From an uncultured Rhodospirillaceae bacterium (GTDB lineage: Bacteria; Pseudomonadota; Alphaproteobacteria; UBA9219), in the NCBI GenBank assembly GCA_964446645.1, contig CAYUPD010000001.1, positions 1 to 38,316 on the forward strand: a stretch of DNA of 38,316 bases. Reading direction: 5' to 3'. Under the pieces are notes generated by a model. The model saw only the letters and a list, made by a program, of their open reading frames with translations. It was not told the DNA's origin and searched no databases. The position numbers were made by a program, and so were the translations under genes. Positions 18,931-38,145 of this stretch are shown piece after piece. Position 1 is the first letter of the stretch. Every line of letters begins with the position of its first letter.

Positions 18931-18972
18931 AGCCCTTCGCGGCAGGCTTTTGGGCTGCTATAACCTTTTTCC

Positions 18973-19374
18973 ATGATTATCGGCATCGGAAACGACCTGA
19001 CGAACATCGACCGCATCGCGGCAACGCTTGAGCGACACGGCGAGCGTTTTGTGCGCCGCGTTTTCACGGCCCAAGAAAAAGCCAAGGCCGAAAAACGAGC
19101 AAACAAGGCAGCTACTTACGCCAAGCGTTTTGCGGCCAAGGAAGCATGCGCTAAGGCTTTGGGAACGGGCTTTAAGCGCAGCGTCTATTTTCGAGACATG
19201 GGCGTGGTCAACCTGCCGTCGGGCAAGCCGACGATGGAGCTGACCGGCGGGGCGCTAAAAAGGCTGCAAGAGATAACACCCGAAGGGACGAAAGCCGTCA
19301 TCCACCTAAGCCTCACCGACGACAAGCCTTGGGCACAAGCCTTCGTGGTAATCGAGGCCTTGCCTGAAGCATAA
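18973..19374 (+). CDS. acpS: Holo-[acyl-carrier-protein] synthase
   Basis: [15 protein letters not shown]...[10 protein letters not shown]...[14 protein letters not shown] is the canonical AcpS 4'-phosphopantetheinyl transferase sequence. Confidence 0.9.
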
Positions 19375-19415
19375 CTTATTGATATTTCTATCTCCCTGTT
19401 TTGGAGCAAACAAAT

Positions 19416-20600
19416 ATGGCCTTAAAGAATATATCAGGGTTTATCTCCACCCCGGACGATTTGTCGCAGTTAAAACTGATCGACGCCCAAGCGGTGCGGG
19501 ATCTTGCAAAAGAAGTCAATTCTTTAAAGAAAAACGACCTTAAGGGCCGCAAGCTTGTCATCCTCTTGGCCACCGGCGGCACGGTCGCGATGGCCACAAA
19601 GAAGGGCATTCGCCGTCCCGCGCTGCAATGGAAAGATTTGTGCCAGATAGCCGGAACGCGCGTTCAACAGGATTTTGAGATAAGGGGAATTAACGCCTTT
19701 TGCATCGACAGTTCGCAAATGAACTATGCTCATACGCGCGAACTTGCCATTTCCATGTGTTATCTATGGAAAAACATCAAGGTTCCGTTCATCGGCTTTC
19801 TAATTACGCACGGCACGGACACCATGTCCTATTCCGCTGCCGCGATGTCTCTCATGACAGGCCAAGGCCTCCCTTTTTCTATCGTCTACACAGGGTCTCA
19901 ACGGCCGCCGGACGATCCGATGAGCGACGCCCAAACCAACTTGCGCAACGCGCTTTATACTCTTGAGGCGCTGCACAGCAAAGATATGGCCGAAGTGCTT
20001 ATCGTTATGGGCGAACGCGCCATGCTCGCAACATCTTCCGAAAAAATTGATGACAAGGCCGCAAACGCTTTCGCCGCCCCAAGGCACTGTTACGTTACAA
20101 AATTCAACCATATGGAATATCCGGTAAAACTGGCTTCATGGCTTCGGCCGCGTCGACGGCAGCCTTTTGTCCCGACAATCTGGAAAGGAGATTGGTCCCG
20201 CACTTTAGTGATCAACTCAACTCTCGGACTCAATCCGGAAATGGTGGAACAACAAATCAATACGCCTCTTATCAAAGCCGTTATTGTTTATTCATATGGG
20301 GCTGGAACGGTTGACGAGAAAGTTTTGGCCATCGTCGCTAAAACCGCCCAAAAGCGAAGGCTCCCCGTTTTTATTGTCAGCCCCGTACATGCCGATTTTC
20401 ACGCTGTATACGAATCTAGCGATAAAGCCCTAAAAACAGGCATCGTACCGATAAACCTCACATTATCCGCCGCTCTGGCAAAAATTGAGATTGCCCTACA
20501 GCTATATCCCGACAATCTGAAGGCATTATCTAAATTTGTGGCAACAAATTACGTCGGCGAAGTTCCGACTGAGGCTTCCGGATTTAACGCAGGCATATAA
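19416..20600 (+). CDS. L-asparaginase family protein (type I / GatD-like) with an N-terminal extension of about 50 aa
   Basis: Catalytic motifs LVILLATGGTVAM (TGGT) and ITHGTDTMSYSAAAMS (HGTDT), plus C-terminal YGAGTV. ATG at 19416 with GGAG 9 nt upstream. The gene looks A/T-richer than its neighbours by eye. Confidence 0.85.
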   Translation: MALKNISGFISTPDDLSQLKLIDAQAVRDLAKEVNSLKKNDLKGRKLVILLATGGTVAMATKKGIRRPALQWKDLCQIAGTRVQQDFEIRGINAFCIDSSQMNYAHTRELAISMCYLWKNIKVPFIGFLITHGTDTMSYSAAAMSLMTGQGLPFSIVYTGSQRPPDDPMSDAQTNLRNALYTLEALHSKDMAEVLIVMGERAMLATSSEKIDDKAANAFAAPRHCYVTKFNHMEYPVKLASWLRPRRRQPFVPTIWKGDWSRTLVINSTLGLNPEMVEQQINTPLIKAVIVYSYGAGTVDEKVLAIVAKTAQKRRLPVFIVSPVHADFHAVYESSDKALKTGIVPINLTLSAALAKIEIALQLYPDNLKALSKFVATNYVGEVPTEASGFNAGI

Positions 20601-21149
20601 TTATTTGAGAGGCGGAAACTCCTCGCCGCGCGCGATGGCCTCGCCGATGGGCGCGAATTCTTTGACGACGCCTTCGTAAACGGGGCGTTTGAAGGGCACG
20701 ATGAGCAAAGGCGTTTCTTGCAAAGTCGCCCACCGCCACGCAATAAATTCGGGCTTTTCCGGCTCGTTTTTTCCGGACAGATCGATCTCGCCGTCCGAGC
20801 CTAAAAACCGAAGCGCGAACCATTGCTGCTCTTGCCCCCGGTACTTGCCGCGAAAAACCGCGCCGTCATGGCCGACGCGGCGGTTTTGCAGCCAATCCGG
20901 AAACTCATAGCGCAGCAGATCGGCTGCTTTGGCGATGATGCGCGCGTTGTCGGTGCCGATTTCTTCTTTCATTTCGCGCAAGACGGCTTTCAGGGGGTCT
21001 TCGTCTTTTTGGATGCCTCCTTGCGGCATCTGCCACGCGCCGCGTTTGTCGCGGCGCTCGGCAATCAGCACAAGGCCTTGCGCGTTAAAAAGGCAAATGC
21101 CGACGCTCCGGCGATAGGGAAGTTTGTGCACATCGACGGGGAATGTCAT
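20601..21149 (-). CDS. rppH: RNA pyrophosphohydrolase (NUDIX)
   Basis: YRRSVGICLFNAQGLVLIAERRD...WQMPQGGIQKDEDPLKAVLREMKEEIGT is a Nudix box in RppH/NudH context. The gene directly abuts the upstream deacetylase-like gene. Confidence 0.9.
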   Translation of the reverse strand: MTFPVDVHKLPYRRSVGICLFNAQGLVLIAERRDKRGAWQMPQGGIQKDEDPLKAVLREMKEEIGTDNARIIAKAADLLRYEFPDWLQNRRVGHDGAVFRGKYRGQEQQWFALRFLGSDGEIDLSGKNEPEKPEFIAWRWATLQETPLLIVPFKRPVYEGVVKEFAPIGEAIARGEEFPPLK

Positions 21150-22226
21150 TTACTGGACCATTGCGCTTAAAGGCGCCAAGGCAATGCCGTGTTCCGGCAG
21201 CGTTTTGGCCCACGCCTGAAGTTGGTTGATCATAACCGGCGTCGCCGCCGTAATTCCGACAGCGCGGCCTGTTTGCCGGGCCGTCATTTCGAGGTTTTCG
21301 AGCGCCTCGGTGATGGCCTGAGGATCGAGGTTGATGTCGAGTCGCTGCGTGGACGTCGCGACGGGAACGCCCGCGTGGCGCGCCATGTCGGTGACGACGC
21401 CGTGGGGCACGACGCGCGAATCCAAAACCATGAGGCCGCGCTTGCGGAGTTCCTGCAGGATAAGGCCGAACCGCGTCGGATCGGAGGTAAAGCGCGAGCC
21501 GTAGGTTGTCGTAACGCCGACATAGCCCGTAGCCTGACGCATGGATTTGAGAAGGCGAGCTATATTTTCGCTGCTCGATAGATTAGTCAAAAGAGTGTCG
21601 GGGCCGGGATCGCTGCGAGGATAGTCGAACGGCTCGATGGGAACCTGGATTAGAATTTCATGTCCGTCCTGCCGGGCGCGGGTACCCCACGCGCCGACGG
21701 CCGCTCCTTGCGAGTTAAACGATAGAGTCACGGTCGGCGGCGTTTGAGCGATGGCCTGATCGGTGATGGCGCGCGACAGGCCGAGGTCGGTAATGACGAT
21801 GGAAACGCGGGGGCGGCGATCGGCCATGTTGAAGGGGCGGGCATAAACCTGCCACGGGCGCGCGCCGTCTTCGGCGATGCGCGGCAAAGCGCCCTCGGCC
21901 GTATCCTCGGTCACGCGGCTTTCCGGAGCCGGGATCAGTTTGATTGTGCGGTCGTTTTGATCGTTGAGAGCGGGAGCATTAACGTCCGTCTCAACCTTTT
22001 TGTATCCGCCCGAAACTTTCTCGCCTTCGATCTGGCTCAAGGAAGGCATGGGAGTCGCGACTTTAGCCTCATTGCGGAGACTGTGGCCGCGAATAAAAGC
22101 CGGAGGCAGAACGAGAACGGCAAAGATCGCCGCGGTTACGAACAATTTAAGATTGCGCGGATAGCGCGCGAGGAACGTCTCGCGGCGCGGCGGCAGTACA
22201 AAAGCGGGCGAAGCGGAGTCGGACAT
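21150..22226 (-). CDS. Divergent polysaccharide deacetylase family protein (YibQ-like)
   Basis: N-terminal TM segment, then RVSIVITDLGLSRAITDQAI...TLSFNSQG...GHEILIQVPIEPFDYPRSDPGPDTLL, typical of the YibQ/DUF610 family. The start is ambiguous between ATG 22226 and TTG 22238. Confidence 0.85.
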   Translation of the reverse strand: MSDSASPAFVLPPRRETFLARYPRNLKLFVTAAIFAVLVLPPAFIRGHSLRNEAKVATPMPSLSQIEGEKVSGGYKKVETDVNAPALNDQNDRTIKLIPAPESRVTEDTAEGALPRIAEDGARPWQVYARPFNMADRRPRVSIVITDLGLSRAITDQAIAQTPPTVTLSFNSQGAAVGAWGTRARQDGHEILIQVPIEPFDYPRSDPGPDTLLTNLSSSENIARLLKSMRQATGYVGVTTTYGSRFTSDPTRFGLILQELRKRGLMVLDSRVVPHGVVTDMARHAGVPVATSTQRLDINLDPQAITEALENLEMTARQTGRAVGITAATPVMINQLQAWAKTLPEHGIALAPLSAMVQ

Positions 22227-26148: not shown

Positions 26149-27180
26149 ATGACCTTGTTCTCGCCGGACCCGCTGCCCCCTTTTGAGAGGAAACGTTCTT
26201 TCTCGCGCCTTTTGGCGGCAGGGCTCTCGATTCTTTTTCTTTTGGCTATATCGTTGCCGATCTGGGGTGTCGCGGCGTTGCTCAGAGAAGGGCCTCTTCA
26301 GGAAGACAAGACGATTGTCGTCCTGCGCGGCACGCCGGTCGCCGATATCGGACGGCAACTTGCGAAGGAAGACGCCGTCCGCGCGGCCTTGCTTTTCCGG
26401 GTCGCCGCGCGCCTCGCCGGGCCGCTCAAGGCCGGAGAATACGCAATCCCGGCGCATGCAAGTGCTTACGATATCGCGATAATTATGAATAAAGGCCTTT
26501 CCGTGCCGAGATTTTTCACGGCGGCCGAGGGCCTGACATCGTCCGAAATCGTGGCCTTGCTCAACAACGAGCCGGTGCTGAACGGCGCGGTGCTCGACAT
26601 TCCGCCGGAAGGGTCGCTGTTGCCCGAGACGTATCGTTACAATTACGGCGACAGCCGGGCGGGGATTCTTGGGCGCATGCAAGCGGCGATGAAAGAAAAG
26701 GCCGCCGCTCTGTGGGAGAGCCGCGAAGAAGGGCTTCCTCTGGCGTCTATGAGCGATGCCGTCGTCTTGGCGTCGATTGTCGAGAAGGAAACGGCCAAAT
26801 CCGACGAGCGGGCGCGCATTGCGGGGGTGTTCTACAATCGCCTGCGCAAAAATATGCGCCTGCAATCCGACCCGACGGTTATCTACGCGCTGACCGACGG
26901 GCAGAGGGAGCTTGACCGCCCCCTGACGCACAAAGACCTTGAGTTTGCATCGCCGATCAACACCTACGCGAGCGACGGATTGCCGCCCAAGCCTATCTGC
27001 AATCCGGGGCAAGCGTCACTGGTTGCGGTTTTGCATCCTGAGCATCACGAGTTTCTGTATTTTGTCGCGGACGGCAACGGAGGCCATACGTTTTCGACCG
27101 ACCTTGCGGCCCACAACAGAAGCGTGGCGCAAATGCGCCGCGCCACGACTCCCCCACCCTCGGCAAAACCGAAGCCATGA
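26149..27180 (+). CDS. mltG: Endolytic murein transglycosylase MltG (YceG family)
   Basis: N-terminal TM segment (LLAAGLSILFLLAISLPIWGV), then EGSLLPETYRY, LASIVEKETAKSDERARIAGVFYNRLRKNMRLQSDPTVIY and NTYASDGLPPKPICNPG. ATG at 26149. Confidence 0.9.
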   Translation: MTLFSPDPLPPFERKRSFSRLLAAGLSILFLLAISLPIWGVAALLREGPLQEDKTIVVLRGTPVADIGRQLAKEDAVRAALLFRVAARLAGPLKAGEYAIPAHASAYDIAIIMNKGLSVPRFFTAAEGLTSSEIVALLNNEPVLNGAVLDIPPEGSLLPETYRYNYGDSRAGILGRMQAAMKEKAAALWESREEGLPLASMSDAVVLASIVEKETAKSDERARIAGVFYNRLRKNMRLQSDPTVIYALTDGQRELDRPLTHKDLEFASPINTYASDGLPPKPICNPGQASLVAVLHPEHHEFLYFVADGNGGHTFSTDLAAHNRSVAQMRRATTPPPSAKPKP

Positions 27181-27812
27181 CCTCCGTCGCCGCTAACATC
27201 GCCGCCGCGCGGGAACGGCTTCAAGGAAAGACGCTGATCGCCGTCACAAAAAACCAAAGCGTCGAGGCCGTCCGCGAAGCTCTGGCGGCGGGACAACGGG
27301 TTTTCGGCGAGAACCGGGTACAGGAAGCCCAAAAGAAGTTCGCCGATTTGCGAGTGGCGTTTCCCGATATCGAGCTGCATCTGATAGGCCCCTTGCAAAC
27401 CAACAAGGCCAAGGACGCGGTCGAATTTTTCGATGTAATTCAAACGCTTGACAGACCAGAATTAGCCGAAGCTCTGGCAAAAGCGATGCGCAAAACCGGC
27501 AAAACCCCTCGTCTTTATATAGAGGTCAACATCGGCCTCGAGCCTCAAAAATCCGGCATTGCCCCGGACAAAGCCGAGGCGTTCCTTACCCTGTGCCGCG
27601 ACGCTTACAAGCTTTCGGTTTCGGGATTGATGTGCATTCCGCCGCAGGGAAAGAATCCGAAGCCCTACTTTTGCGCGCTGCGCGATCTGGCCGAGAATCT
27701 CTCCCTGCCGCATGTCAGCATGGGGATGAGCGCGGATTTCGAAACGGCGATTGCCTGCGGCGCGACCGAGGTGCGGATCGGCACGGCCCTTTTCGGCGAA
27801 AGGAAAACGTAA
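27177..27812 (+). CDS. yggS: YggS-family pyridoxal-phosphate homeostasis protein
   Basis: LIAVTKNQSVEAVREALAAGQRVFGENRVQEA, LHLIGPLQTNK and SMGMSADFETAIACGATEVRIGTALFG. The start forms an ATGA overlap with the mltG stop. Confidence 0.9.
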   Translation: MTSVAANIAAARERLQGKTLIAVTKNQSVEAVREALAAGQRVFGENRVQEAQKKFADLRVAFPDIELHLIGPLQTNKAKDAVEFFDVIQTLDRPELAEALAKAMRKTGKTPRLYIEVNIGLEPQKSGIAPDKAEAFLTLCRDAYKLSVSGLMCIPPQGKNPKPYFCALRDLAENLSLPHVSMGMSADFETAIACGATEVRIGTALFGERKT

Positions 27813-27841: not shown

Positions 27842-28942
27842 TTAAAACGCGCCCGTGCTGCTGCTTTTCGACATCGCCGTAACGACGCTGAAAATTGACA
27901 TCATCGTCCAGGCGATGATGCCGCCGACGGCGGCCATTCCGGCGTTACGGACGACGGCGGCTTGGGCTTTCATCATATCGACCTGATCTTCCATCCATTC
28001 CTCGGCCACCTGCTCGATGACTTGGCCGACATCGGCGCGTTCGGATAGAATTTCGAGGTCGACGGCGACGTCCGGCGAAGGGAAGTTCATTTTGGACAAG
28101 CGCAGGGCCTCGCCCAGATTATGCCCGCGCAAAACCATCAGGCGCGCGGCGCCGATGCGCTCCTTGACCCACGGATTGCCCTGCTCTTCGAGAATTTCGA
28201 GCGACCTTTTTAAGGGCACCTGAGCGCCCAAAAGGGCCGAAAGGCCCATCAAAAAGCTGCTGCCCTGAAGGACGCGGTACCACGACCACGGCGCGTAAAG
28301 ATCGAACTTCGAGCGCAGCGGGCCGCGCCAGAAAGGAAGGGTCGACGAGATAAGAATGACGACAAAGACGACAAAAAAGACGACCGGAAGCCCCCACTCG
28401 GTCACAAAATCGGAGAACGGGACGATAGAGCCCATCGACTCGATGACGCTTCTAGGGGCGTTGGAACGCATATTGGCAATAAGGTTGACGCTGAAGGTCC
28501 AGATGACGAAGCCGACGAGCAAAAAGATAAACGCCGGATATCCGACCGCATACGTGACGGTTTCGCGCATCTGGCGGCCTTTTTCGCTCATCGTCTGAAT
28601 GAACGTTAATGTTTTAGCCAGAGCGCCGGATTCCTCTCCCGCGCGGATGAGGTAAAGCTCGCCGGTCGGAACCCAGCCGTCCATGGCTTTCGAAAGAGCG
28701 ATGCCCGCGCGGTCTTTAAGGAACCATTCGCGCAAAGCGATGGCGGCGGGGCGCTTGGGGTATTTGCCCATTTCGGTGACGTTTTGATACAGCCGGTCCA
28801 GAGCCTGAGACAAAGCCTCGTTGGATTTGAGCATGCCCTCGAGCTTGCGGTAGATGCGGTAGCGAGCGCGGCGGTTGTTGCGGAATTGGAGCTTTGCCCA
28901 TTTGAGCTCGAGCTGCGCCAAGGAGTCCTGAATGTCGCTCAT
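27842..28942 (-). CDS. GspF/PilC-family inner-membrane platform protein (R64 PilR-like, type IVb)
   Basis: 366 aa. Two GspF-like cytoplasmic helical domains (LIRAGEESGALAKTL; VLRGHNLGEALRLS) alternate with three TM segments. The start forms an ATGA overlap with the upstream ATPase gene. Confidence 0.85.
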   Translation of the reverse strand: MSDIQDSLAQLELKWAKLQFRNNRRARYRIYRKLEGMLKSNEALSQALDRLYQNVTEMGKYPKRPAAIALREWFLKDRAGIALSKAMDGWVPTGELYLIRAGEESGALAKTLTFIQTMSEKGRQMRETVTYAVGYPAFIFLLVGFVIWTFSVNLIANMRSNAPRSVIESMGSIVPFSDFVTEWGLPVVFFVVFVVILISSTLPFWRGPLRSKFDLYAPWSWYRVLQGSSFLMGLSALLGAQVPLKRSLEILEEQGNPWVKERIGAARLMVLRGHNLGEALRLSKMNFPSPDVAVDLEILSERADVGQVIEQVAEEWMEDQVDMMKAQAAVVRNAGMAAVGGIIAWTMMSIFSVVTAMSKSSSTGAF

Positions 28943-30789
28943 TGCATGGGCCCCAGTTTTTCTTCGCCGTCGACGACTTCTCGGGGCCGGGCGAAATAGC
29001 CCAGCTCGAACTCGGCGTCGTCCGGAGACACTTCGCCCAGCCTGACCTTCTCGAGTCCGCGCTGAAGCATCGTGATGCCGTTAAGCCCGGCGGGAGAGAG
29101 CCAATAATTAAGCGCGTCTTCCTCGCGGTTGTCTTCGAGCAGCGCCATCAGCTTGGCGTCGGCCTCGATGATCTCGGCGGCGACGGTACGGCCTGCGCGG
29201 CCTTTATAACATTGGGGGCATCCTTCGGGATTGGCGACGTAAACGTTGCTTAAATCCGGCTCGGCCAGGCAATCCATGATGTTCTTGCCGACATTCGCCT
29301 TGTTGCGGCTCGCGTCCATCATGGCAAGGCCGATGCGCAGGCGGCGCGCCATTTCGCGCATCGTGGGGCCGAATTCGTCGCAGGCGTCTTTTAAAGGAAT
29401 GCGGCAATGCGGGCACATGCTGCGCAACAATCTTTGGCAGGCCATGCCGCGCACGAGGTTGTGGTCGTAAACGATATAAGGCTCGATGCCGATGTCGCGT
29501 AGGCGCTTGGGAGTCGCGAGCGCCGAATAGACGTGGCTCGTGGTGTAGACTTGGCGGCCCGTCAAAGCGAGGCGGAAGGCGAACTGGGCCGTCTGCAAGT
29601 CACGCACTTCGCCCAGCATCACGATGTCCGGATCGAGGCGCAGGGCGCAGCGCATGATTTCGACGAAGGTTTTTTCGCGCTGCTCGTCCTTGACGGAGGC
29701 CGACACGCCGATCTGTCGCGCGCCGACGACGCCGCCTTCGGGCGGGTCTTCGATGATAAGACAGTTGAGGCGCATCTCGGTTTCGGACATGCGGCGGTTA
29801 AGGACGACGCGCAAGGTCGTCGTTTTGCCTTGGTTGACGGGGCCGGAGAAGATGCGCAAGCCGCCCGGAGCGGCGCGCAGGCTTTGAACGACTTTAAGCT
29901 GCTCCTGCGAGAAGCCCAAAGAGTCGACGTCGGCCATAATGAAGTTTTCGCCCCAGAGGTGGGACGAGTCGTAATTGAGGCGCATATCGAGATAAGCGCC
30001 GCCGTTGGCGAGCGGAACCCACTGGCAGCGAACGCCGATGACGCCTTGAGGAAGAGTGATGACCTCTTTGCCGCGCGCCTCGGAGGTGAGCATGGCGGCC
30101 TGAGGTTCCTGAAAGTTGGCCGTAGCGCCGGATTGGCCGATCGAGTGCGAATAGACGGCGGCGAGGAATTGGTCGCCCTCGACCTGCGTCCACACGTCCT
30201 GACGGCGCAGCGAGCCGTCGATGCGGAACTGAACGACGGCGCGGCCATTGACGGATTCGATATGGATGTCGTTAGCGCCCGCCTGAACGGCCTGCTCAAG
30301 CGTCGCGACAATGCGGCGGCGAGCGGCGTTAACGTCGTAATGCGTGCTTGTGCTGCTGCGGTCGGCGTAAATATAGGCCTGAATAATGATGTTCGGCGTA
30401 ACGTAGCGCGGCTCATCGACCTTAAAGCCGTGGCGCTTGGCGGTCTGAGCTACCGACGTTACGAGCGGCGAGCGGCGGTGCGAGGCGCTGACGAGCCAGA
30501 GGCCGGAGCTAAAAAGAGCGCAAAGGTTGCGGGCTTCGTCGGGGATTTTGAGGGGGCCGTCTGCAGCAGTCAAAACGGTGCCGGAGAACAAAAGAGGCAG
30601 AGTGCGCTCGTCTTCGATTTTGACTTTCTCGGCGGCAGGAACGACTGCGGGGGAAGCAGAGGCCTCTTCGGCAGGTTTCGAAGGAGGTGGCGCGGCAGGG
30701 GAAGGGGTGGAAGGCGGATGGGTCGAGGCCTCCGCCGGGCGAGGCTTTTCCTTCGGCGCGGGGGTTTTTGGATTGCCAAGCCCCTTCAT
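28939..30789 (-). CDS. GspE/PilB-family secretion ATPase (R64 PilQ-like, type IVb) with a Pro-rich N-terminus
   Basis: DIHIESVNGRAVVQFRIDGSL (N2 domain). Walker A SGPVNQGKTTTL, Asp box LIIEDPPE, Walker B PDIVMLGEVRD and His box TGRQVYTTSHV. Tetracysteine CPHC...CPQC. ATG at 30789; the ORF track extends it to a TTG at 30840. Confidence 0.9.
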   Translation of the reverse strand: MKGLGNPKTPAPKEKPRPAEASTHPPSTPSPAAPPPSKPAEEASASPAVVPAAEKVKIEDERTLPLLFSGTVLTAADGPLKIPDEARNLCALFSSGLWLVSASHRRSPLVTSVAQTAKRHGFKVDEPRYVTPNIIIQAYIYADRSSTSTHYDVNAARRRIVATLEQAVQAGANDIHIESVNGRAVVQFRIDGSLRRQDVWTQVEGDQFLAAVYSHSIGQSGATANFQEPQAAMLTSEARGKEVITLPQGVIGVRCQWVPLANGGAYLDMRLNYDSSHLWGENFIMADVDSLGFSQEQLKVVQSLRAAPGGLRIFSGPVNQGKTTTLRVVLNRRMSETEMRLNCLIIEDPPEGGVVGARQIGVSASVKDEQREKTFVEIMRCALRLDPDIVMLGEVRDLQTAQFAFRLALTGRQVYTTSHVYSALATPKRLRDIGIEPYIVYDHNLVRGMACQRLLRSMCPHCRIPLKDACDEFGPTMREMARRLRIGLAMMDASRNKANVGKNIMDCLAEPDLSNVYVANPEGCPQCYKGRAGRTVAAEIIEADAKLMALLEDNREEDALNYWLSPAGLNGITMLQRGLEKVRLGEVSPDDAEFELGYFARPREVVDGEEKLGPMQ

Positions 30790-30918
30790 CTTTTTTCCAA
30801 GACCGATGAATTCGAACACGAGTTCCTCAAGAAAAACCAAGACAAACCAAAGGCGAGACCGTTATCATCCGGACGGCCGCCCACGTTTTCGCGGTCGCGC
30901 GGATCTAAAAGGCGCAGC

Positions 30919-30947
30919 ATTCTAACACCAGCCGCCGAATTTGCCTA
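30919..30947 (-). promoter_or_regulatory. Candidate internal sigma-70 promoter in the pilP-ATPase gap
   Basis: The minus strand reads TAGGCA-N17-TAGAAT with a TG one base upstream of the -10 (extended -10). It lies about 130 nt upstream of the ATPase ATG. Confidence 0.25.
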
Positions 30948-31009
30948 GAAGAGCAAAGGGCATCCGGAAGCGGATCAAAAAAAGCAAAAATCCATCCGAC
31001 TCCCGTCTA

Positions 31010-31786
31010 TTACCGCATAGCGTTGTAGATAACGCCGCCGTTGCTGATATGAAGGGTATAGGATTTCTTTTTGCCCGCAATTTCGACAGACGACGTCGTG
31101 ATCGACTGAACGACCTCGCTGTCGTTAATTTTGTCGCCGACTTTAACGATCCGTTTTTCGCCGTCGGGAGACTTCAGCACGGCCATATACTTACCGCCGG
31201 TTCCGTAAATCTGAGTGACGCCATAACGGGACGAAGAGGCCTTCACGGGAGCCACGGAAACAACGGGTTCCGGCAAGGCGGGTGGAGGCGTAACGGCAGC
31301 CGCCGAGACCTGAGGAGCGAAAGCCGTCTGCGGAATAGCGCTTTCGATCGACTCCAAAGAGGCGGATGCGCGCGCGCCGCGCAATTTTTCGAGTTCTTTC
31401 AAGCGCTTCTCGAGTTCGATCATCGCCTCGATGCGGGTCACGGTCTGGCGCGCCAAATTCAGGTCTTCGAGAGTTGTAACGTCGGAGCCGTTATCCAAGC
31501 GTTTAATCGCAGTCTTGGCGTTTGCAATCGCCTTTTCCTCCATCGAGGAAACGCTCTTCCGAATACTTTGGTGATCGGTCTTCAGACCCTCGTCTGCCGA
31601 AACAATGGCTAAGGGAGACGGCATAATCGGGGCGTCAGCCTGCGGCGCAGCGGGCGCAGAAGCGTCGGGCAAAACGTTCTGGGCGTATGCGGGAGGGACG
31701 GAGCAAAGGCCAAAAGCGACAAGGGCCGCGGCAAGGCACCTCTTAAGAGGCGACTGCAGCAGGAAAATCTTATTTTCTATTCTCAT
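31010..31786 (-). CDS. PilP-like type IV pilus biogenesis protein (secreted)
   Basis: Signal peptide ...LVAFGLCSVPPAYA-QN, a central coiled coil (RIEAMIELEKRLKELEKL) and a C-terminal beta domain YGVTQIYGTGGKYMAVLKSPDGEKRIVKVGDKINDSEVVQSITTSSVEI typical of PilP. It overlaps the pilO-like stop by 17 nt. Confidence 0.75.
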   Translation of the reverse strand: MRIENKIFLLQSPLKRCLAAALVAFGLCSVPPAYAQNVLPDASAPAAPQADAPIMPSPLAIVSADEGLKTDHQSIRKSVSSMEEKAIANAKTAIKRLDNGSDVTTLEDLNLARQTVTRIEAMIELEKRLKELEKLRGARASASLESIESAIPQTAFAPQVSAAAVTPPPALPEPVVSVAPVKASSSRYGVTQIYGTGGKYMAVLKSPDGEKRIVKVGDKINDSEVVQSITTSSVEIAGKKKSYTLHISNGGVIYNAMR

Positions 31787-33026
31787 AAATAACCCCTTCG
31801 ACCGTCCACGCGGTGGCGCCGCCGCCGCGCGAATAGCTCATACTGTTTATGATGGCTCCGGGTAAATCTCCGATATAACCCGAGAGCGCTCCGGGGATTT
31901 CTGCCACAGTAAGCGTAAAAGAACGCTTAACCCAAGGCGCTGGCGGCGGATTCCATGCACCGGTGTATCCTTCCGGTGGCGGTGGAGGGGGGTCGTCGGA
32001 AAGCCGAGCGACCGATCCGGGCCAGTTTTGAATGAGGTAAACGTTTGTTATTTCATCGATATTTTTCAAAACCTCGTTTCCACGAGGATTGAGGGGGGGC
32101 AAGGGTAGTGTCTTTGTTGCCACATGGCCAGTATCGTTAACTCTTGCCTCCATAGGGGGGGCCGTCTGGCCTTTTGTCCGGTTCCAGGTCAAAGAAATGG
32201 TCGTTCCGTTGCAGGAGAAGGAAGTCAGGGCCCAGCCGACGATGTCCGACGGGATCAAGGACAACCCGTTATGGCAGGCGCTGATAACGTCATTCGGACG
32301 TGGGGCCTTTTCCCAAAATCTCTCGTATTTCGGCTCGGGCGGGGGCTGCTGAACGAAAGACGGGAGTCGAGCCGCCTCCTGCGCGCGGCGGAGAGCTTCT
32401 TGGGCCAAGGCCTCCTGCTCGGCGTTTTTCTTCTGCACAAACCAGAAAGCGCCAAGCGCGATGACGGCGGCGGCAACGCCCGCCCCGATGAGCGCCTTTG
32501 TCTGAACGGGGATCGAAACGCGCTGAAGAATGATGTCCGCGCGGTCGTTGATAAGCAGCGTCGGAGGGATCGAGTCCGCATTGGGGATCGACCACCCTTC
32601 CGGAGCGTAGATGGTTTGCAATCCGCCGAAGCCGATTTCCTGCAACAAACGGTCGCGCGCTTCGGTTTCCTCGGTAAAGAAAAGATCGCCGTCAGGGACG
32701 ATCAGGTCGTCGCGAACGATGACGAGAGCGATGCCCTCGGCAAACTGAAAAGCGCCGGCCCACGATCCCGGAAGCTGGCTGGCGAGACAGGCGGCAAGAA
32801 CGGGCGTGCCCGCCTGAAGCTTTCCCCCTTCGTTCGAACAAAGGCCGAATTGAGGAACACGGCCGTCCCGGCTTCCGGGGCGAACGACGTAGAAATCGGC
32901 TTGCTGGCCTGGTTGATTGGCGGCTTCCTTGGCTATCTGGGCGACGCGGCCGCTGCCGGGACTATTTTCCCAATAGAGGCCAACCGCGTAGCGTCGGCTG
33001 CCAAGAGTAATGACTCCGGCGGCCAT
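31770..33026 (-). CDS. PilO2-like type IVb pilus assembly protein (bitopic)
   Basis: The N-terminus GSRRYAVGLYWENSP...ADFYVVRP...QFGL...PVLAACLASQL...AFQFAEGIALVIVRDDLIVPDGDLFF matches my recollection of the R64 PilO / PAPI-1 PilO2 family. There is a single TM segment (ALIGAGVAAAVIALGAFWFV). The start overlaps the secretin stop (TGATG). Confidence 0.75.
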   Translation of the reverse strand: MAAGVITLGSRRYAVGLYWENSPGSGRVAQIAKEAANQPGQQADFYVVRPGSRDGRVPQFGLCSNEGGKLQAGTPVLAACLASQLPGSWAGAFQFAEGIALVIVRDDLIVPDGDLFFTEETEARDRLLQEIGFGGLQTIYAPEGWSIPNADSIPPTLLINDRADIILQRVSIPVQTKALIGAGVAAAVIALGAFWFVQKKNAEQEALAQEALRRAQEAARLPSFVQQPPPEPKYERFWEKAPRPNDVISACHNGLSLIPSDIVGWALTSFSCNGTTISLTWNRTKGQTAPPMEARVNDTGHVATKTLPLPPLNPRGNEVLKNIDEITNVYLIQNWPGSVARLSDDPPPPPPEGYTGAWNPPPAPWVKRSFTLTVAEIPGALSGYIGDLPGAIINSMSYSRGGGATAWTVEGVIYENRK

Positions 33027-34759
33027 CAGCCATGCTCCTCATCCCGAGAGACATCCATGACCTGAGGCGTAATCGCCAGGAACATCATGAGATGAGTCTC
33101 GTTGCTCGAAGCGCCGCCGCCGAAAAGGAAGTTTTCCGGAGATCCGACTCCCTGCTTATTTTGCTGAATCCTTTCCTGATCGACGCCGCCGATGACGAGC
33201 GTTTGCCCGCTGCGCAGCATCGACTGCTGCACGAAAATACGATTGTCGGTGACCGGCAGGGAGATCGGAATATTGCCGTTGCCGCCCGTATTGAAGGTTG
33301 TGGAGCCCATGTCGCTGATGCCGATGAGGCTGAGCGAGTATTGAAGAAGGATGCGGCCGTCGTCGAGCAAGCGCGGCGTCAATTGGAGAGAGAAGCCGTC
33401 ATGAATGGTCGAAATGATGGGAGTATAGGTCGTCGTGGTCGAGGTCGTAGACGTGGTGTTCGTATCGACGGACGAAATGAAAGAGGTGTCCGTGCCGATG
33501 CGGCGCGACACGGGACGATTGTTGAGCGTCGTCATCGGGAACTGAGCGACCTGAGACGTATCGCCGACGGTCGAAAGAGCGTAAAAAATGCCCGACGCGT
33601 TCGACTTCGTATTGCCTGCGTTGTTGAGGATCGCGACGTTCAAAGCGCCGAGATCGTTGACGGTGAGGCTCGTATTGGTAATGCCGGGCATGCCCGCCGA
33701 CGTATAGCTGACGCCGCCGATGCGCTTCAGGAAAGCCGTAAAGGCGCCGTCGTAGTCTTCGCTCTTTCCGAGATTGACGTTGTAGACCTGAACGTTAATC
33801 GCGATCTGGCGCGTGAGCCGTTTATTTTCCTTCGAGATGTAATCGGCGATCTGCGTCATGATTTCGGGCGTCGTCGTGACGGTGACGGTGCCCATGGTCG
33901 GCGAAATGATGGCCGAACCTTGAGAACCGACCATGGCCGTCAACACGGAAGTCAACTCGTCCCAATACTTAAGCTCCATTTTCGAGGACGAGTTCTGGGT
34001 CAGCGTATTCGACGAGCTTTTATTGTAGCTGGTCGAACCGCTCGAACTGTTCGAGCTGTCGTCGTTGTCGTCCTGCATGCCTTCGTTGATCTCGAAGGTG
34101 CCGGGCAACGCCTCGACGACGAAGATGCGGGTTTCGTAGCGGGAGATATAGATGGCCGCGCCGTCGAAACGCCACGTGACGCCGAAATGAGCGCTGACGC
34201 GATCGAGCAAGCCCGACAAAGGCCCCTCGTAGGATATGAGCATATCGTTGTCGGCCGAGGTATCGTTAGCCGTCGACGCCGAGGTCGGGGCGGGAGCGGA
34301 CGTAAACGCAGCCGGCTGCGCCGTCGCCGCGGCCTGAGGGGCGGCGGCCGACGTTTTGCCCGGAAGGGAAAGGAACAGGAGGCGGACGGGAACGCCGGTC
34401 TGGACGCCGACGGAGCTGGCGATATCCGCCAAAGACATCGGCTCGGAGGACACGAGCGTCACGCCGCGCTCTTCTTCATACCGCGCGGGCAAGGGAATGC
34501 CGCGATGCATGCGGCGCGCGGCATTGCCGCTCCACAATTTATTCGTAACGGTCAGGGGATCGAAATTGGCGGCGTTCGGGCTTTTCTTTTGTGTTGAATC
34601 AAGAGCGGTTTTTGCCTCTTCGGCCCTTTTATCGATGGCCTCGCGCATCACCTTGGTTTGAACGCATGCGCCAGCACTCAGGCAAACGCCGACGATGACG
34701 ACGGCAGCGCAAAGCTTTTTCAGAAGGCTTTTGGCACGCGTCGTTCGAGTTAAGGCCAT
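33026..34759 (-). CDS. PilN-family type IVb pilus outer-membrane lipoprotein secretin
   Basis: ATG at 34759 with GGAG 7 nt upstream. Lipoprotein signal MALTRTTRAKSLLKKLCAAVVIVGVCLSAGA-C. Ser/Thr-rich linkers. C-terminal secretin domain (LQLTPRLLDDGRILLQYSLSL...LRSGQTLVIGGVDQERIQQNKQGVG...MMFLAITPQVMD). The Arg-rich 68-codon upstream extension in the ORF track is rejected. Confidence 0.85.
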   Translation of the reverse strand: MALTRTTRAKSLLKKLCAAVVIVGVCLSAGACVQTKVMREAIDKRAEEAKTALDSTQKKSPNAANFDPLTVTNKLWSGNAARRMHRGIPLPARYEEERGVTLVSSEPMSLADIASSVGVQTGVPVRLLFLSLPGKTSAAAPQAAATAQPAAFTSAPAPTSASTANDTSADNDMLISYEGPLSGLLDRVSAHFGVTWRFDGAAIYISRYETRIFVVEALPGTFEINEGMQDDNDDSSNSSSGSTSYNKSSSNTLTQNSSSKMELKYWDELTSVLTAMVGSQGSAIISPTMGTVTVTTTPEIMTQIADYISKENKRLTRQIAINVQVYNVNLGKSEDYDGAFTAFLKRIGGVSYTSAGMPGITNTSLTVNDLGALNVAILNNAGNTKSNASGIFYALSTVGDTSQVAQFPMTTLNNRPVSRRIGTDTSFISSVDTNTTSTTSTTTTYTPIISTIHDGFSLQLTPRLLDDGRILLQYSLSLIGISDMGSTTFNTGGNGNIPISLPVTDNRIFVQQSMLRSGQTLVIGGVDQERIQQNKQGVGSPENFLFGGGASSNETHLMMFLAITPQVMDVSRDEEHG

Positions 34760-34770
34760 TTGCTTCTCCG

Positions 34771-35709
34771 TTAATTCGAATAGCTGTTGCCGCGTGTTTG
34801 GACGACGAGGACTTTTTGGCCGGCCGAGGCGTTGACGTGCAATTCGCCGAAGGGCTGCGGTCTGGCGGCATCGAACCCGGCGAGCAGGTTGCGGACGGCG
34901 TCTTCGAATCCTCTGTTGAAATTGGCGGAAGCTTCGATCGGATAATCGTATTCGGCAAGCCACTTAAGCTCAATGCCCGCGCGGCGGCACCAGTCCGTCA
35001 AAACGGCATGCAGCGTGCTGCCGCGTTCGGCCGTCCACGAGCCAACCGGGACAGCGTCTGCAGCGGGAACGACGACCGGCGCGGAAGCGGCGACAGTTTC
35101 CTGAGACGGGAAGACGGCGGGCCGAGGCAAGGATTGCGGCGCTTTTTGAGCGATGGGAGAAACAGCCCCTTGAGCCGGCATGACCGTGACGACCGTTCCG
35201 TTTTTAGCAAAGGCCAGATCGACGGCGGCAAGCATAGCTTCGAGCGTCGCGTCCCACGGCCTGCCGCTTTTATACGAAACGAGCGTGTTCATATCGACGC
35301 CCGGAGAAATCGAAAACGTGTAGCCCACGGGCAAGAGCTGGCGCAGCGCGAGCGTCAGGGGGACGTGCGAAGCGAAGCCTTCGACGACGGGCTCTTTCGA
35401 CGTTTCTTTGGCGGGTTGCGGCGTTATGCTGATGGTTTCGTTTGCCAGATCGACCTTGGCTTCGTTTTTAACTTCGGCCTTAGGCACGGAAACGAGGCCT
35501 ACATCGGTTTTTATCTCGCTTTTCGGTTCCGCAACGATGGGCGAAAGAGGCAGTGGCGCGGCGTAAGGGCTTGGCTCGGAAGAACTATAAGGAGTTTCTC
35601 CAGCTGGAGCGACCCACTTAAATCCCGCGAAGGCAGGAGAGGACGAAAGAGCAAAACCTAAAAGCAGGGTTGCAGCGCCACAGAAAGAGGGAAGAAGTCT
35701 GTCAGGCAT
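34771..35709 (-). CDS. PilL/TcpQ-domain pilus biogenesis protein (secreted)
   Basis: Signal peptide ...LLLGFALSSSPAFA-GF. A secretin-N/PilL-like segment VPLTLALRQLLPVGYTFSISPGVD. A C-terminal TcpQ-like domain WTAERGSTLHAVLTDWCRRAGIELKWLAEYDYPIEASANFNRGFEDAVRNLL. It ends 11 nt upstream of the secretin gene. Confidence 0.7.
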   Translation of the reverse strand: MPDRLLPSFCGAATLLLGFALSSSPAFAGFKWVAPAGETPYSSSEPSPYAAPLPLSPIVAEPKSEIKTDVGLVSVPKAEVKNEAKVDLANETISITPQPAKETSKEPVVEGFASHVPLTLALRQLLPVGYTFSISPGVDMNTLVSYKSGRPWDATLEAMLAAVDLAFAKNGTVVTVMPAQGAVSPIAQKAPQSLPRPAVFPSQETVAASAPVVVPAADAVPVGSWTAERGSTLHAVLTDWCRRAGIELKWLAEYDYPIEASANFNRGFEDAVRNLLAGFDAARPQPFGELHVNASAGQKVLVVQTRGNSYSN

Positions 35710-35982: not shown

Positions 35983-38145
35983 ATGAAAAACATCGGCTCT
36001 CTTTTCTGTCTTCTCGTTTTTCTGGCGGGGTTCGGCGCGACGGCGTGGGCGCAACAAGCGACGCCGCAAAGCGCGCCCGCTGCGGTAAAAGCCGCCGAAC
36101 CGGCAAAACCGGTTGTTGAGCAGACGGCGCCTGCCGTTACGGCGCCCGTTGCGCCCGCGCCGCTCGCCACGCAGATCGAGAAGACAATCCAGACGATTGT
36201 AGACAAGACAGCGGCGATTGCGCAGCCCCCGGCGACGGACGAACCCGTTGAGCCGATTGCGGACACTTTCGTGCTCGATGTTCTGGACGCGCTCAATCAG
36301 GCCGGCTCTTTTCTGAAGCAAAACGCCGAAAAGCTCGGGTCGTTTTCTGCGGCGACGACCGACTTCGGCGCATGGCTGGGCGTTCAGGGAAGGGATTCGC
36401 GGCGCATCGCTTTGTGGGGATCTTTGGGCGGCGATTTTTTGATGATCGTCGTTCCGCCGTTTTTGGTCGGCGCGGCGTTGTTTTTCTTTCTGATGCCGCT
36501 GCGCAAGAAGCTGAAACTTAAAAGAAAAACTCTGCCTGAGAAAGTCTGGCTTCTTTTCGGATTGTTCTTTTTGCGGCTTATTCCCGTTCTTGCCTTTTTC
36601 GGCGCGGCGTTGGCGCTGCTCGAGCAAAACGAAACCCAACGGTTGCAACGCTTCGTCGTTTCAAACATCATTTATGCGTTGTCCCTCGCCTACGCCGTCC
36701 GGCAAGTTTTGAGAGGGCTTCTGTCTCCTTCGACGGACTACTTGCGGATTTTGCCTTTGTCGACTCCGCAAGCCGTTTCGATCAGCCGCTGGCTGAGCGC
36801 TTTTTCTTTTCTCGTCATCGGCGGTTATTTTGCCCTCGACATCGCCTCGGCCCTGCGCGTGCCGTCGAGCGTCGTCCTTATTTCGAAAAGCGTTTTCGCC
36901 GTCGGTTTGACGGTTCTGGCGATTGCGGCGATCTTTCGCCTGCGCGCGCCGATTGCTTCCATGCTGCGCGGATCGATCGATAAAAACTCGTCCGGCTTCA
37001 TCGACGTTATTCGTCTGGGGCTTGCGCGGCGGTGGCATAGCTTGGCCATCGCCTACCTGATGATCAGTCTGGCCGTTATTCTGATGGGCGTTGAAAACAA
37101 CATCGTCCTCGTGCTGCGTGGAACGATCTTAAGCATTATTGCGCTGATCGCGGCGCGCCTTGCCTATCTTGCCGCCGAACGCTGGCAAACGCCGCGCCCG
37201 GGCGAAACGCCGCTGGTTCACCGGCGGGTTATTTTCTTCCTGATGAGGCCATTTCTTTGGATTGCGGTTCTCGTGGGGATTGCCGCTTCGTGGGGACTGG
37301 ATGTGGGACGCCTTGCCGCGACGCCGCGCGGCGCACGTGTTTGGGGAGCCGTGGTATCGGTCGGATTGACTCTTTTTGTGCTGACTGTCCTTTACGAAGT
37401 TATCCACAGGTTGATTGATCGGCACCTGTCCCGGATCGACAAAGACGACCGGACGCCGCTGGCTTCGGCCCGTGCGCAAACGTTGCTTCCGATGCTGCGG
37501 ACGTCGGCGCTTATATTTCTTTCGACCATCGGCATATTCGTGTGTCTTTCGGCCATCGGCGTCGATATCGGGCCGCTTCTGGCCGGAGCCGGGATCGTCG
37601 GCGTCGCCATCGGTTTTGGCTCCCAAACTCTGGTTAAAGATTTTCTGACCGGGCTGTTCATTGTCGCCGAGAATACGATTGCCGTCGGCGACATTGTAAA
37701 GATCGACGATTTTTCGGGCGTTGTCGAAACGCTGAGTCTTCGGACGATACGCCTGCGCGCGTTTGACGGGTCTCTGCACATCCTGCCCTTCGGCGAAGTA
37801 TCGAAAATCACGAATATGACGCGGGGCTTTGCCTACGCGGTTATCGATATCGGCGTCGCGTACGACAGCGACCTCGACCGCGTTCTGGCCGTCCTGCGCG
37901 AAATCGGCGGCGAAATCCAGAGCGATCCGGCCTTCAAGCGTCTGATCGCGGCACCGATTGAGGTGTTGGGGGTCGAAGCGTTCGAAGCGTCGGCGATTAC
38001 GCTCCGAGCCCGCATTCGCACGCGGCCCGGGAAGCAATGGGACATCAAGCGAGAATTTTTGCTCCGCATGAAGCGGCGGTTTGACAAGGAAGGGATCGAA
38101 ATTCCCTTCCAAACGGTCGTCCATATAGAGAAAAAAGCGGAATAA
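35983..38145 (+). CDS. MscS-family mechanosensitive ion channel with a large N-terminal periplasmic/membrane domain (MscK/KefA-like)
   Basis: ATG at 35983 gives the signal peptide MKNIGSLFCLLVFLAGFGATAWA-QQ, followed by multiple TM helices. The MscS core is GFGSQTLVKDFLTGLFIVAENTIAVGDIVKIDDFSGVVETLSLRTIRLRAFDGSLHILPFGEVSKITNMTRG. Confidence 0.9.
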   Translation: MKNIGSLFCLLVFLAGFGATAWAQQATPQSAPAAVKAAEPAKPVVEQTAPAVTAPVAPAPLATQIEKTIQTIVDKTAAIAQPPATDEPVEPIADTFVLDVLDALNQAGSFLKQNAEKLGSFSAATTDFGAWLGVQGRDSRRIALWGSLGGDFLMIVVPPFLVGAALFFFLMPLRKKLKLKRKTLPEKVWLLFGLFFLRLIPVLAFFGAALALLEQNETQRLQRFVVSNIIYALSLAYAVRQVLRGLLSPSTDYLRILPLSTPQAVSISRWLSAFSFLVIGGYFALDIASALRVPSSVVLISKSVFAVGLTVLAIAAIFRLRAPIASMLRGSIDKNSSGFIDVIRLGLARRWHSLAIAYLMISLAVILMGVENNIVLVLRGTILSIIALIAARLAYLAAERWQTPRPGETPLVHRRVIFFLMRPFLWIAVLVGIAASWGLDVGRLAATPRGARVWGAVVSVGLTLFVLTVLYEVIHRLIDRHLSRIDKDDRTPLASARAQTLLPMLRTSALIFLSTIGIFVCLSAIGVDIGPLLAGAGIVGVAIGFGSQTLVKDFLTGLFIVAENTIAVGDIVKIDDFSGVVETLSLRTIRLRAFDGSLHILPFGEVSKITNMTRGFAYAVIDIGVAYDSDLDRVLAVLREIGGEIQSDPAFKRLIAAPIEVLGVEAFEASAITLRARIRTRPGKQWDIKREFLLRMKRRFDKEGIEIPFQTVVHIEKKAE

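Follow-up and report, generated by a model that had tools for sequence, protein, structure and literature searches.

How does a bacterium come to carry a complete type IVb (T4b) pilus assembly core with no pilin gene beside it, and what would such a core assemble? The locus that raises this question occupies positions 27842-35709 of a 38,316-bp contig from an uncultured Rhodospirillaceae bacterium (GCA_964446645.1); that contig, in full, is the window analyzed here. Six minus-strand open reading frames (ORFs), all in one direction, lie between yggS and the gene for an MscS-family channel and encode homologs of PilL, PilN, PilO2, PilP, PilQ, and PilR. We consider it likely that they form a domesticated, fragmented T4b pilus core whose fiber genes and prepilin peptidase are supplied in trans. 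Such a system would be split; it is hardly a remnant of an integrative and conjugative element (ICE) and probably not an apparatus that does without a fiber.

In order of transcription, the operon encodes a PilL-like protein of 312 amino acids (aa) with a signal peptide, a Pro/Ala-rich linker, and a C-terminal TcpQ domain (34771-35709); PilN, an outer-membrane lipoprotein secretin of 577 aa from the ATG that begins MALTR... (33026-34759); PilO2, a bitopic protein of 418 aa with a cytoplasmic actin-like N-domain, one transmembrane segment, and a periplasmic C-domain (31770-33026); PilP, a periplasmic protein of 258 aa with a signal peptide (31010-31786); PilQ, an assembly ATPase of the GspE/PilB class, 626 aa from GTG 30819 (28939-30819); and PilR, an inner-membrane platform of the GspF family, 366 aa (27842-28942). 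The ORF coordinates agree with a preliminary description of this DNA, which had listed six codirectional genes in this order and four tight junctions: an 11-nt gap between pilL and pilN, TGATG between pilN and pilO2, a 17-nt overlap of pilO2 with pilP, and ATGA between the ATPase and platform genes. The remaining junction, between pilP and the ATPase gene, had been estimated at about 170 to 220 nt and measures 190 nt with the start at GTG 30819.

Profile hidden Markov models place all six proteins in the families first proposed for them. The PilL-like protein matches TcpQ (PF10671, 1.4e-13, residues 224-304; 51.1 bits versus a cutoff of 27), PilO2 matches PAP_PilO over its full length (PF06864, 1.8e-28; 100 bits versus 26.7), and PilP passes TIGR03021 pilP_fam by a narrow margin (6.1e-9; 36.9 bits versus 34.65). 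PilN matches the TIGR02520 PilN model at 8e-75 with 252 bits, under the equivalog cutoff of 287.65, which indicates homology at the family level and not an equivalog; Secretin (PF00263, 1.3e-11) and Secretin_N_2 are both above cutoff. Its lipobox-like sequence reads ...LSAGAC, and the N termini of the four relatives that were read contain LLGC, LSGC, LSAC, and LVGC. The ATPase matches T2SSE (PF00437, 8.5e-52, 176.5 bits), and its translation shows a Walker A motif (GPVNQGKTT), a Walker B motif, a Pro-rich N-terminal extension, and the tetracysteine motif reported earlier (CPHC...CPQC). The platform protein contains two T2SSF repeats (PF00482, 7.3e-22, 78.1 bits). Homologs are named "type 4b pilus protein PilO2" by the NCBI pipeline.

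Comparison with solved structures connects the core with the bundle-forming pilus (BFP) of enteropathogenic Escherichia coli (EPEC). PilN aligns at full length with the EPEC BfpB secretin (9u5s_A, E 4.2e-61, residues 41-571 to 13-531), and residues 223-291 of the PilL-like protein match a 114-residue "Lipoprotein" chain solved together with that secretin (9u5s_R, E 3.8e-9), in a structure with 17 copies of each of the two. We infer that this chain is BfpG, and the PilL-like protein is probably the secretin partner. The PilO2 family profile finds the actin-like N-domain of PilO2Bp (4bz0/4byz, 2e-6; PMC3984277) and BfpC (3vhj, 1.4e-3). The ATPase is 31% identical to BfpD (8e-68), 31% to IncI PilQ (4e-49), and 33% to an ATPase encoded on a Bosea plasmid (1.5e-87), and the platform is 26% identical to BfpE (5e-42) and 27% to IncI PilR (4e-35). 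Both proteins thus score higher against BfpD and BfpE than against IncI PilQ and PilR, and the core is about equally close to the EPEC bundle-forming pilus and to the R64 thin pilus.

PilO2 has 249 homologs in public metagenomes, and a scan that covered each GTDB species with one genome returned 49 loci, all in metagenome-assembled genomes (MAGs); loci are cited below by L number. All six genes are present in 36 of the 49; the other 13 are without one or more of them, mostly since the contig ends within the cluster, and the gene order is never violated. A gene stands at the pilL position in 45 of the 49 and pilP is found in 43, PilP being the least conserved of the six proteins (28-46% identity, best segment). 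Best-segment identity to the window is 56-83% for the ATPase and 56-85% for ATPase and platform together. Pairwise ratios of nonsynonymous to synonymous substitution (dN/dS) against six relatives, which are rough values with dS saturated, range from 0.05 to 0.32 for the six genes, with 0.05-0.11 for pilQ and 0.05-0.14 for pilR beside 0.06-0.21 for the housekeeping neighbors yggS, DUF711, and mscS; all six genes appear to be under purifying selection. A neighbor-joining tree of PilO2 splits the family in two, with the window in clade A and Micavibrio-labeled MAGs in clade B. The same six genes are kept in 20 clade A loci, whose PilO2 proteins are 56-76% identical to that of the window (best segment) except for L034 at 50%.

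The surroundings of the operon are shared as well. Pfam confirms the housekeeping flanks, with yggS (Ala_racemase_N), mltG (YceG), aroA, and grpE on one side and the MscS-family channel gene on the other. The two boundary genes, which lie outside the system, are yggS (27177-27812, plus strand; PLP-binding, Ala_racemase_N 9.4e-27), convergent with pilR across a 29-nt spacer, and the channel gene (35983-38145, plus strand; MS_channel domains), divergent from pilL. The closest relatives have the same flanks, yggS-mltG-aroA-grpE-DUF711 and mscS, and a comparison of the yggS-to-channel interval, which the preliminary description had proposed, finds the same junctions recurring in clade A: pilR-yggS in nine loci (L001, L002, L006, L007, L008, L010, L011, L044, and the window) and pilL-mscS also in L001, L003, L004, L006, L007, L008, and L045. 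GC content is 0.56-0.61 within the cluster and 0.50-0.63 in the remainder of the window; scans of the window for tRNA genes and Rfam families returned no match, and the repeat scan returned only short imperfect repeats of chance quality. The host-like composition reported earlier is thereby upheld, as is the lack of tRNA genes and flanking direct repeats. The absence of any integrase holds for the cluster borders only: the window has a single recombinase, a tyrosine recombinase at 4321-5259 on the minus strand (Phage_integrase with a SAM-like N-domain). Its neighbors form a nadD-rsfS-rlmH housekeeping block, found again in relatives L050 and L053, which makes the gene a probable XerC/XerD-like one and not the integrase of a mobile element. 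Since the flanking synteny is common to relatives, the GC is host-like, and no tRNA or repeats border the cluster, we read it as a functional operon inherited vertically, in a large clade of uncultured alphaproteobacteria, and not as a recent island.

If the core is functional, its fiber has to be sought, and the two clades differ on this point. In clade B, one to six prepilins with a G↓F(T/S)LxE leader and a mature part of about 200 residues follow pilR in every judgeable locus, and relatives' prepilins carry the PilS (PF08805) and Bundlin (PF05307) domains. Several loci continue after the pilin array with members of families F20 (about 190 aa) and F26 (about 200 aa) and then a large pilin of 443-480 aa that has an N-methylation motif and ends in a Peptidase_S74 (endosialidase chaperone) domain (L032, 18547-19974; also L063, L064, L067, L029, L040, and L048). 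The large pilin is an analog of PilV with a different tip architecture, and its S74 domain suggests a trimeric, tail-fiber-like tip adhesin on a T4b pilus; no Rci-like gene was seen beside it in the relatives. In clade A, by contrast, the 14 judgeable loci all lack a prepilin after pilR, strict and relaxed motif scans of the 10-kb flanks found none, and the same two kinds of scan of the window found no ORF with a class III signal peptide. A prepilin peptidase of the A24 family was found within 10 kb of the core in no locus of either clade, among the genes scanned or read, and Pfam scans of the window ORFs returned neither an A24 peptidase nor an SLT gene.

Fiber genes in trans were sought through the contexts of seven PilS-type pilin profile matches. 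Six of these (P0183, P0192, P0208, P0247, P0194, and P0162) lie in clade B or unassignable assemblies, and only P0219 lies in a clade A assembly. On contig JARLJC010000240.1 of that assembly, GCA_031291435.1, two canonical PilS-type prepilin genes (…G↓FTLTEIAIVLG…) stand together with a third PilS-like gene; manC and a comM-like gene bound the group, and yidC, dnaG, and rpoD are close by. The pil core of the same assembly (L010) adjoins yggS on a separate contig, JARLJC010000338.1, and the GC contents of the two contigs agree (0.61 and 0.60). Additional pilin loci, unlinked to the core and surrounded by housekeeping genes, occur in four clade B assemblies, so dispersal of fiber genes is normal in this family; in two of the four, the trio of F20, F26, and the S74 pilin stands at an unlinked site. 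The large tip pilin is probably among the fiber genes that the window's core would draw on in trans. The peptidase is presumably supplied in trans as well, an arrangement with precedent, because the P. aeruginosa ICE PAPI-1 uses the host PilD, the Burkholderia Tfp7 cluster is without PilU, and M. aeruginosavorus ARL-13, a predator available in culture, has genes for three leader peptidases (PMC5297154, PMC3984277; PMC3189940 supplementary gene table). One of the readings first offered for this locus was a domesticated T4b machine with fiber and peptidase genes elsewhere, and it gains support from the clade A loci without linked prepilins, the prepilins on a separate contig, and the absence of a linked peptidase among the genes scanned or read.

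One relative of the missing pilins is present in the window itself. A gene at 8618-9160 (plus strand, 180 aa), also called by NCBI, lies between ksgA and dsbD and belongs to family F20, and its orthologs in clade A genomes always occupy the same position. The family aligns with the relatives' PilS-type prepilins (hhalign, probability 98.5%, E 2.8e-15, 164 columns, both Cys aligned), and BLASTP finds clade B F20 members at 5e-11 and 1e-9. An AlphaFold2 (AF2) model has a mean predicted local distance difference test score (pLDDT) of 85.7 and shows a 52-residue N-terminal helix with a small alpha/beta head; a Foldseek search of this model against the PDB returned nothing significant, with S. Typhi PilS as the best match (1q5f, TM-score 0.36-0.40, E 0.29). 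The product is without the G↓FxxxE prepilin leader, and the lack of both the cleavage motif and Glu5 excludes it as the major pilin. On the analogy of minor pilins without E5, it is a candidate minor or priming pilin. The term "pilin-less," used in the preliminary description, therefore suits the locus but not the system, which has prepilins after pilR in clade B and this noncanonical PilS homolog in the window.

What else the core once stood beside becomes visible when the relatives' ORFs are clustered and representatives scanned against Pfam and NCBIfam. In at least 24 of the 49 loci, the majority state of the family, dotD-dotC-dotB-icmT lie directly upstream of pilL. The common layout in these loci runs from two genes of unknown function through an SLT/TrbN-like transglycosylase, a DsbG-like thioredoxin-fold protein, a small membrane protein, DotD, DotC/TraI, DotB, and IcmT/TraK to pilL-N-O2-P-Q-R and one to six prepilins. 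The model scores are 5.5e-26 for DotD, 2e-70 for T4SS_TraI/DotC (PF16932), 6e-119 for DotB (TIGR02524), and 79.6 bits versus a cutoff of 40 for IcmT/TraK (NF038220). In L042, two IcmL/DotI genes, IcmK/DotH, and IcmE/DotG-TraO come after the core, so that the bracketing genes occupy 1-6544 and 17177-21278, and in L038 a Dot/Icm-like gene set lies beside the core at 2213-7018. The order DotD-DotC-DotB-IcmT is that of traH-I-J-K in R64. The pilus core is thus embedded in a type IVB secretion system (T4BSS) locus of the IncI or Dot/Icm kind, and its ancestral context is conjugation related.

In the window, the place of dotD-dotC-dotB-icmT upstream of pilL is taken by mscS, as it is in the other members of an inner group of clade A (L001, L003, L004, L006-L008, and L045). 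The dot genes remain upstream and codirectional in two basal clade A loci (L010 and L015) and in the window's sister loci (L028 and L049), and L005 and L009 of the inner group still have DotH and DotG within 5 kb. Because the basal and sister loci keep dot genes with no prepilins after pilR, the locus appears to have been dismantled stepwise in clade A, the pilins leaving first and the dot genes later. The preliminary description had taken a standard pilS-pilT-pilU-pilV block with conjugation genes of the same element as the sign of an ordinary ICE or plasmid remnant. The dot/tra-like genes next to the core in at least 24 relatives touch on that condition, but the locus is inherited vertically across a deep clade and no relaxase occurs among the neighbor genes scanned; we regard it for these reasons as a domesticated apparatus. 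In our literature search we found no published work that links a T4b pilus core to a T4BSS or describes a split locus of this kind; the nearest mention is a passing note of pT4SSi, reported without a relaxase, in seven marine Micavibrionales MAGs (PMC9418006).

Genes that hint at retraction stand near some clade A cores. In L001 (570-2593), L004, L008, and L016, two tandem, divergent PilT-like ATPases of 320-338 aa lie two to three housekeeping genes past the upstream flank of the core, beyond mscS in the first three and beyond pyrC and ndk in L016; the window ends short of that position. The two ATPases of L001 score 1e-34 to 1e-38 against TIGR01420, below cutoff. Members of this group are 34-35% identical to the ATPase encoded after the Bosea plasmid platform gene and about 31% identical to the PilT-like ATPase in the bfpF position of a BFP-like E. 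coli plasmid operon (L057).

These observations can be read in other ways. Had the clade A core given up its fiber for good, it might serve secretion or uptake in the manner of a T2SS or a competence system, perhaps through a short pseudopilus of noncanonical pilin-like proteins such as the 8618-9160 product. All 14 judgeable clade A loci being free of canonical prepilins within 10 kb, the ancient and stable loss of pilin linkage within the clade, and the leaderless state of the window's only pilin-like gene would be expected under that reading. What it leaves unexplained is why a clade A assembly (GCA_031291435.1) has canonical PilS-type prepilins elsewhere, why dispersed pilin loci are normal even in clade B genomes that keep linked pilins, and why the pilus-specific PilN, PilL, PilO2, and PilP are all intact with no candidate cargo gene linked to them. 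To our knowledge, secretion systems of this superfamily also need pseudopilins, which counts against a fiber-independent machine, and on balance we think one rather improbable. A decaying remnant of an integrated IncI- or PAPI-1-type element that lost pilS-V and its transfer genes strikes us as barely credible, even though the gene set is homologous to the R64 thin pilus, lies in relatives beside homologs of R64 traH-I-J-K, and is missing pilin, peptidase, and adhesin genes at the locus. A remnant should not consist of six intact ORFs with dN far under dS, conserved as well as their housekeeping neighbors and retained across 20 clade A loci, nor should it share flanking synteny with relatives, host-like GC, and borders clear of tRNA, repeats, and integrase. 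No relaxase was found among the neighbors scanned, in keeping with the relaxase-free report of pT4SSi in Micavibrionales (PMC9418006).

A further alternative accepts the identity of the core and differs about its role: the pilus would be a free-standing, BFP-type adhesion or retractile pilus for attachment, autoaggregation, or twitching, with no functional tie to a T4BSS. Scores of the core against BfpB, BfpD, and BfpE equal or exceed those against IncI proteins, dot genes no longer adjoin the core in the inner group to which the window belongs, and the PilT-like pair occurs near four clade A cores, all of which such a pilus would explain. It fits less easily with the sister loci L028 and L049 and the basal L010 and L015, where dotD-dotC-dotB-icmT remain directly upstream, with the DotH and DotG retained within 5 kb in inner-group L005 and L009, or with a physical dot-pil link as the majority state of the family. 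A free-standing role is a possibility to be taken seriously, though we would not bet on it. We hold with similar reserve the broadest reading of the family, in which the core would be a module of an IncI-derived apparatus, fixed on the chromosome and made up of a T4b thin pilus and a relaxase-less Dot/Icm-like T4BSS. With it, an order-level alphaproteobacterial clade related to epibiotic predators or protist associates might grab a target and inject effectors; the parts, scattered in clade A, would still make one machine that draws on dispersed pilins, a PilS-like priming pilin without E5, and perhaps retraction ATPases of the BfpF kind.

For the split pilus that we favor, homology to R64, TP114, and BFP suggests how the parts might work together. 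The ancestral core would have lain inside a Dot/Icm-like (IncI-like) locus with its prepilin genes after it, a locus broken up in clade A so that the core now stands between yggS and mscS. PilQ would drive polymerization of processed PilS-type pilins, supplied in trans, on the PilR platform; PilO2 and PilP would join this inner-membrane motor to the secretin; and the fiber would leave through a BfpB-type ring of PilN and PilL in the outer membrane. The pili of R64, TP114, and PAPI-1 bind recipient-cell surface structures and stabilize mating pairs (PMC9045228, PMC5297154), and by analogy we infer that this pilus may mediate cell contact. With less confidence, the cell contacted might be prey or host, and, more speculatively, the pilus could hold a target cell for the T4BSS where both machines are linked.

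Several points weigh against this reading and should be set beside it. The window is the whole contig, so that scans for prepilins, peptidase, and T4BSS genes in this genome cover that contig alone. The sole direct clade A case of prepilins in trans, GCA_031291435.1, rests on MAG binning of two contigs, and its PilO2 is about 58% identical to that of the window. PilM is required in R64, and this core has none: the 11-nt gap between pilL and pilN leaves no room for it, and IncI PilM in the BLAST database matched none of the six core proteins, in a search limited to those six. The one pilin-like gene of the window, as noted, cannot encode the major pilin. The case for a role in predation or host contact is weak, and the "Micavibrio" labels of two MAGs may reflect no more than GTDB-to-NCBI mapping. 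M. aeruginosavorus ARL-13 was considered as a cultured bearer of the system and dropped: its gene table shows no cluster of these sizes and order, and GMV_902 and GMV_903 are different, larger prepilins. With no matching cluster there, predation can be proposed as a role only by way of hypothesis.

Placed among known systems, the operon has the gene order of the thin pilus of IncI1 R64 and IncI2 TP114, which has PilL, the PilN lipoprotein secretin, PilO2, PilP, PilQ, and PilR in the same sequence (IncI plasmid locus L055); the relatives add PilS-type major pilins, a large PilV-like pilin, and traH-I-J-K homologs adjoining the core. The window's core is, however, only 25-31% identical, is without linked PilI, PilJ, PilK, PilU, or a shufflon/Rci, and belongs to a chromosomal, vertically inherited system with unlinked pilins and no relaxase or oriT seen. 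Where R64 has PilV tips encoded by a shufflon, the relatives' large pilin ends in its Peptidase_S74 domain. The window operon contains no PilS prepilin, PilU peptidase, PilT transglycosylase, or PilV with shufflon, and in relatives an SLT/TrbN-like gene lies upstream of the core. With PilM, the linked PilS, PilU, and PilV, the shufflon, and a mobile context all lacking, we regard it as a relative that would work like the R64 and BFP systems but falls outside the R64 operon type.

The EPEC bundle-forming pilus operon runs bfpA-G-B-C-U-D-E-F-P-H-I-J-K-L, and its G-B-C-U-D-E segment equals PilL-N-O2-P-Q-R, in line with locus L057. Shared features are the BfpB-type secretin with its partner chain, the BfpC-like PilO2, Bundlin-family pilins in relatives, and PilT-like ATPases near some clade A cores. 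BFP, in contrast, is plasmid borne, starts with its pilin gene, and has the BfpP peptidase, the BfpH transglycosylase, and minor pilins in its operon, whereas the window's core has no linked bundlin, BfpP, BfpH, BfpF, or BfpI/J/K and shows 23-31% identity. The best-scoring annotated relative is the cluster of Bosea sp. ANAM02 plasmid pANAM02 (26-33% identity; ATPase 1.5e-87, PilN 1.7e-65), with TcpQ, PilN, PilO2, a hypothetical protein, ATPase, and platform in the same order; it differs in lying on a megaplasmid, where the operon goes on to encode a PilT-like ATPase and pilin-like proteins. Similar clusters occur on Rhizobium, Methylorubrum, and Acetobacter replicons.

R64-type clusters that lie on a chromosome and lack PilU have been described before. 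Tfp7 of Burkholderia pseudomallei is such a T4b cluster, with TcpQ in place of PilL and a peptidase thought to be borrowed, and it contradicts the earlier statement that this gene set sits inside conjugative elements (PMC3984277). The window's core resembles Tfp7 in its chromosomal location, conservation within a taxon (for Tfp7, the genus), TcpQ-type protein, and lack of PilU; Tfp7 differs in being betaproteobacterial and in retaining PilS2, PilM2, and PilV2 in its operon. We know of no T4BSS neighborhood reported for Tfp7. Relatives of the window, on the other hand, have their pil core flanked by homologs of DotD, DotC, DotB, IcmT, IcmL, IcmK, and IcmE, none of which is in the window, and for the Legionella Dot/Icm system no embedded T4b pilus core is known to us. 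A type II secretion system would be expected to combine GspD/E/F with the pseudopilins GspG-K and with GspC/L/M as accessory proteins where this operon has PilL (TcpQ), PilO2, and PilP, and the GspE and GspF models score far under their cutoffs. PAPI-1 (pilL-N-O-P-Q-R-S-T-V-M) shares the core genes and, like Tfp7, is without PilU, its pilin being processed by the host PilD (PMC5297154, PMC3984277). Its pil operon includes pilS and pilV and is carried on a mobile island, whereas the window's cluster gives no sign of mobility.

The value of the locus lies chiefly in the family-wide link to a Dot/Icm-like system and in its being a clean example of a split pilus locus. A conjugation-type thin-pilus module can, on this evidence, become a stable chromosomal organ whose parts then drift apart while under selection, so a pilin gene missing from a locus should not be read as a missing fiber. 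Relatives with a T4b core embedded between dotDCB-icmT and icmL-K-E, in a clade with Micavibrio-labeled MAGs, offer a testable lead: if pilus and T4BSS cooperate, the pair would be a candidate for the device by which epibiotic predators or host-associated bacteria make contact and inject.

The MAGs that carry the family are labeled Alphaproteobacteria bacterium, uncultured Rhodospirillaceae bacterium, uncultured proteobacterium, Pseudomonadota bacterium, Bdellovibrionales bacterium, Micavibrio sp., and Micavibrio aeruginosavorus. Among the 49 relatives, two are named Micavibrio and seven "Bdellovibrionales bacterium" by NCBI; as NCBI places Micavibrio under Bdellovibrionales, that label on alphaproteobacterial-looking MAGs probably means Micavibrio-like. 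One locus, L026 (NZ_JAPUVO010000045.1, Propionivibrio sp.), is a 7-kb contig with an alphaproteobacterial-type cluster in a betaproteobacterial MAG, probably a binning error, with horizontal transfer as the alternative.

Three other ORFs of the window were considered as pilins and rejected. The ORF at 6982-7587 is Arg rich, and the true gene there is aroK on the opposite strand. That at 749-2218 (minus strand, 489 aa) has no Pfam family and no homolog in the fetched loci. The third, at 5259-7001 (minus strand), encodes a secreted, helix-rich protein of 580 aa with no Pfam match, which on direct reading resembles a periplasmic helical protein; counterparts of 582-594 aa, likewise without Pfam matches, adjoin the Xer-like gene in relatives.

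Two features within the core itself deserve mention. The secretin of the window has two Ser/Thr/Asn-rich low-complexity stretches, at about residues 300-335 and 505-525 (…DDNDDSSNSSSGSTSYNKSSSNTLTQNSSS… and …TNTTSTTSTTTTYT…). The ATPase gene, in an ORF open from TTG 30840, most likely starts at GTG 30819 (MFEF...): a GAGGA Shine-Dalgarno sequence and a GTG/TTG start are aligned in the five relatives whose fetched stretch covers the start, the codon being GTG in the window and four relatives and TTG in L044. The spacer between pilP and pilQ (30820-31009, minus strand) leads to this start from a promoter-like site found by consensus scan, TAGGCA-17-TGtTAGAAT with an extended -10 (30947-30919, minus strand), followed by the GAGGA. 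L001 shares the -35/-10-like stretch with the window, and the site may drive the ATPase and platform genes from inside the operon. The spacing between pilP and pilQ varies in tblastn because the N-terminal extension of the ATPase varies, and highly so: the protein reaches 799 aa in L047 (12769-15168) and 917 aa in L016 (12257-15010), with long Lys/Glu/Pro-rich low-complexity extensions.

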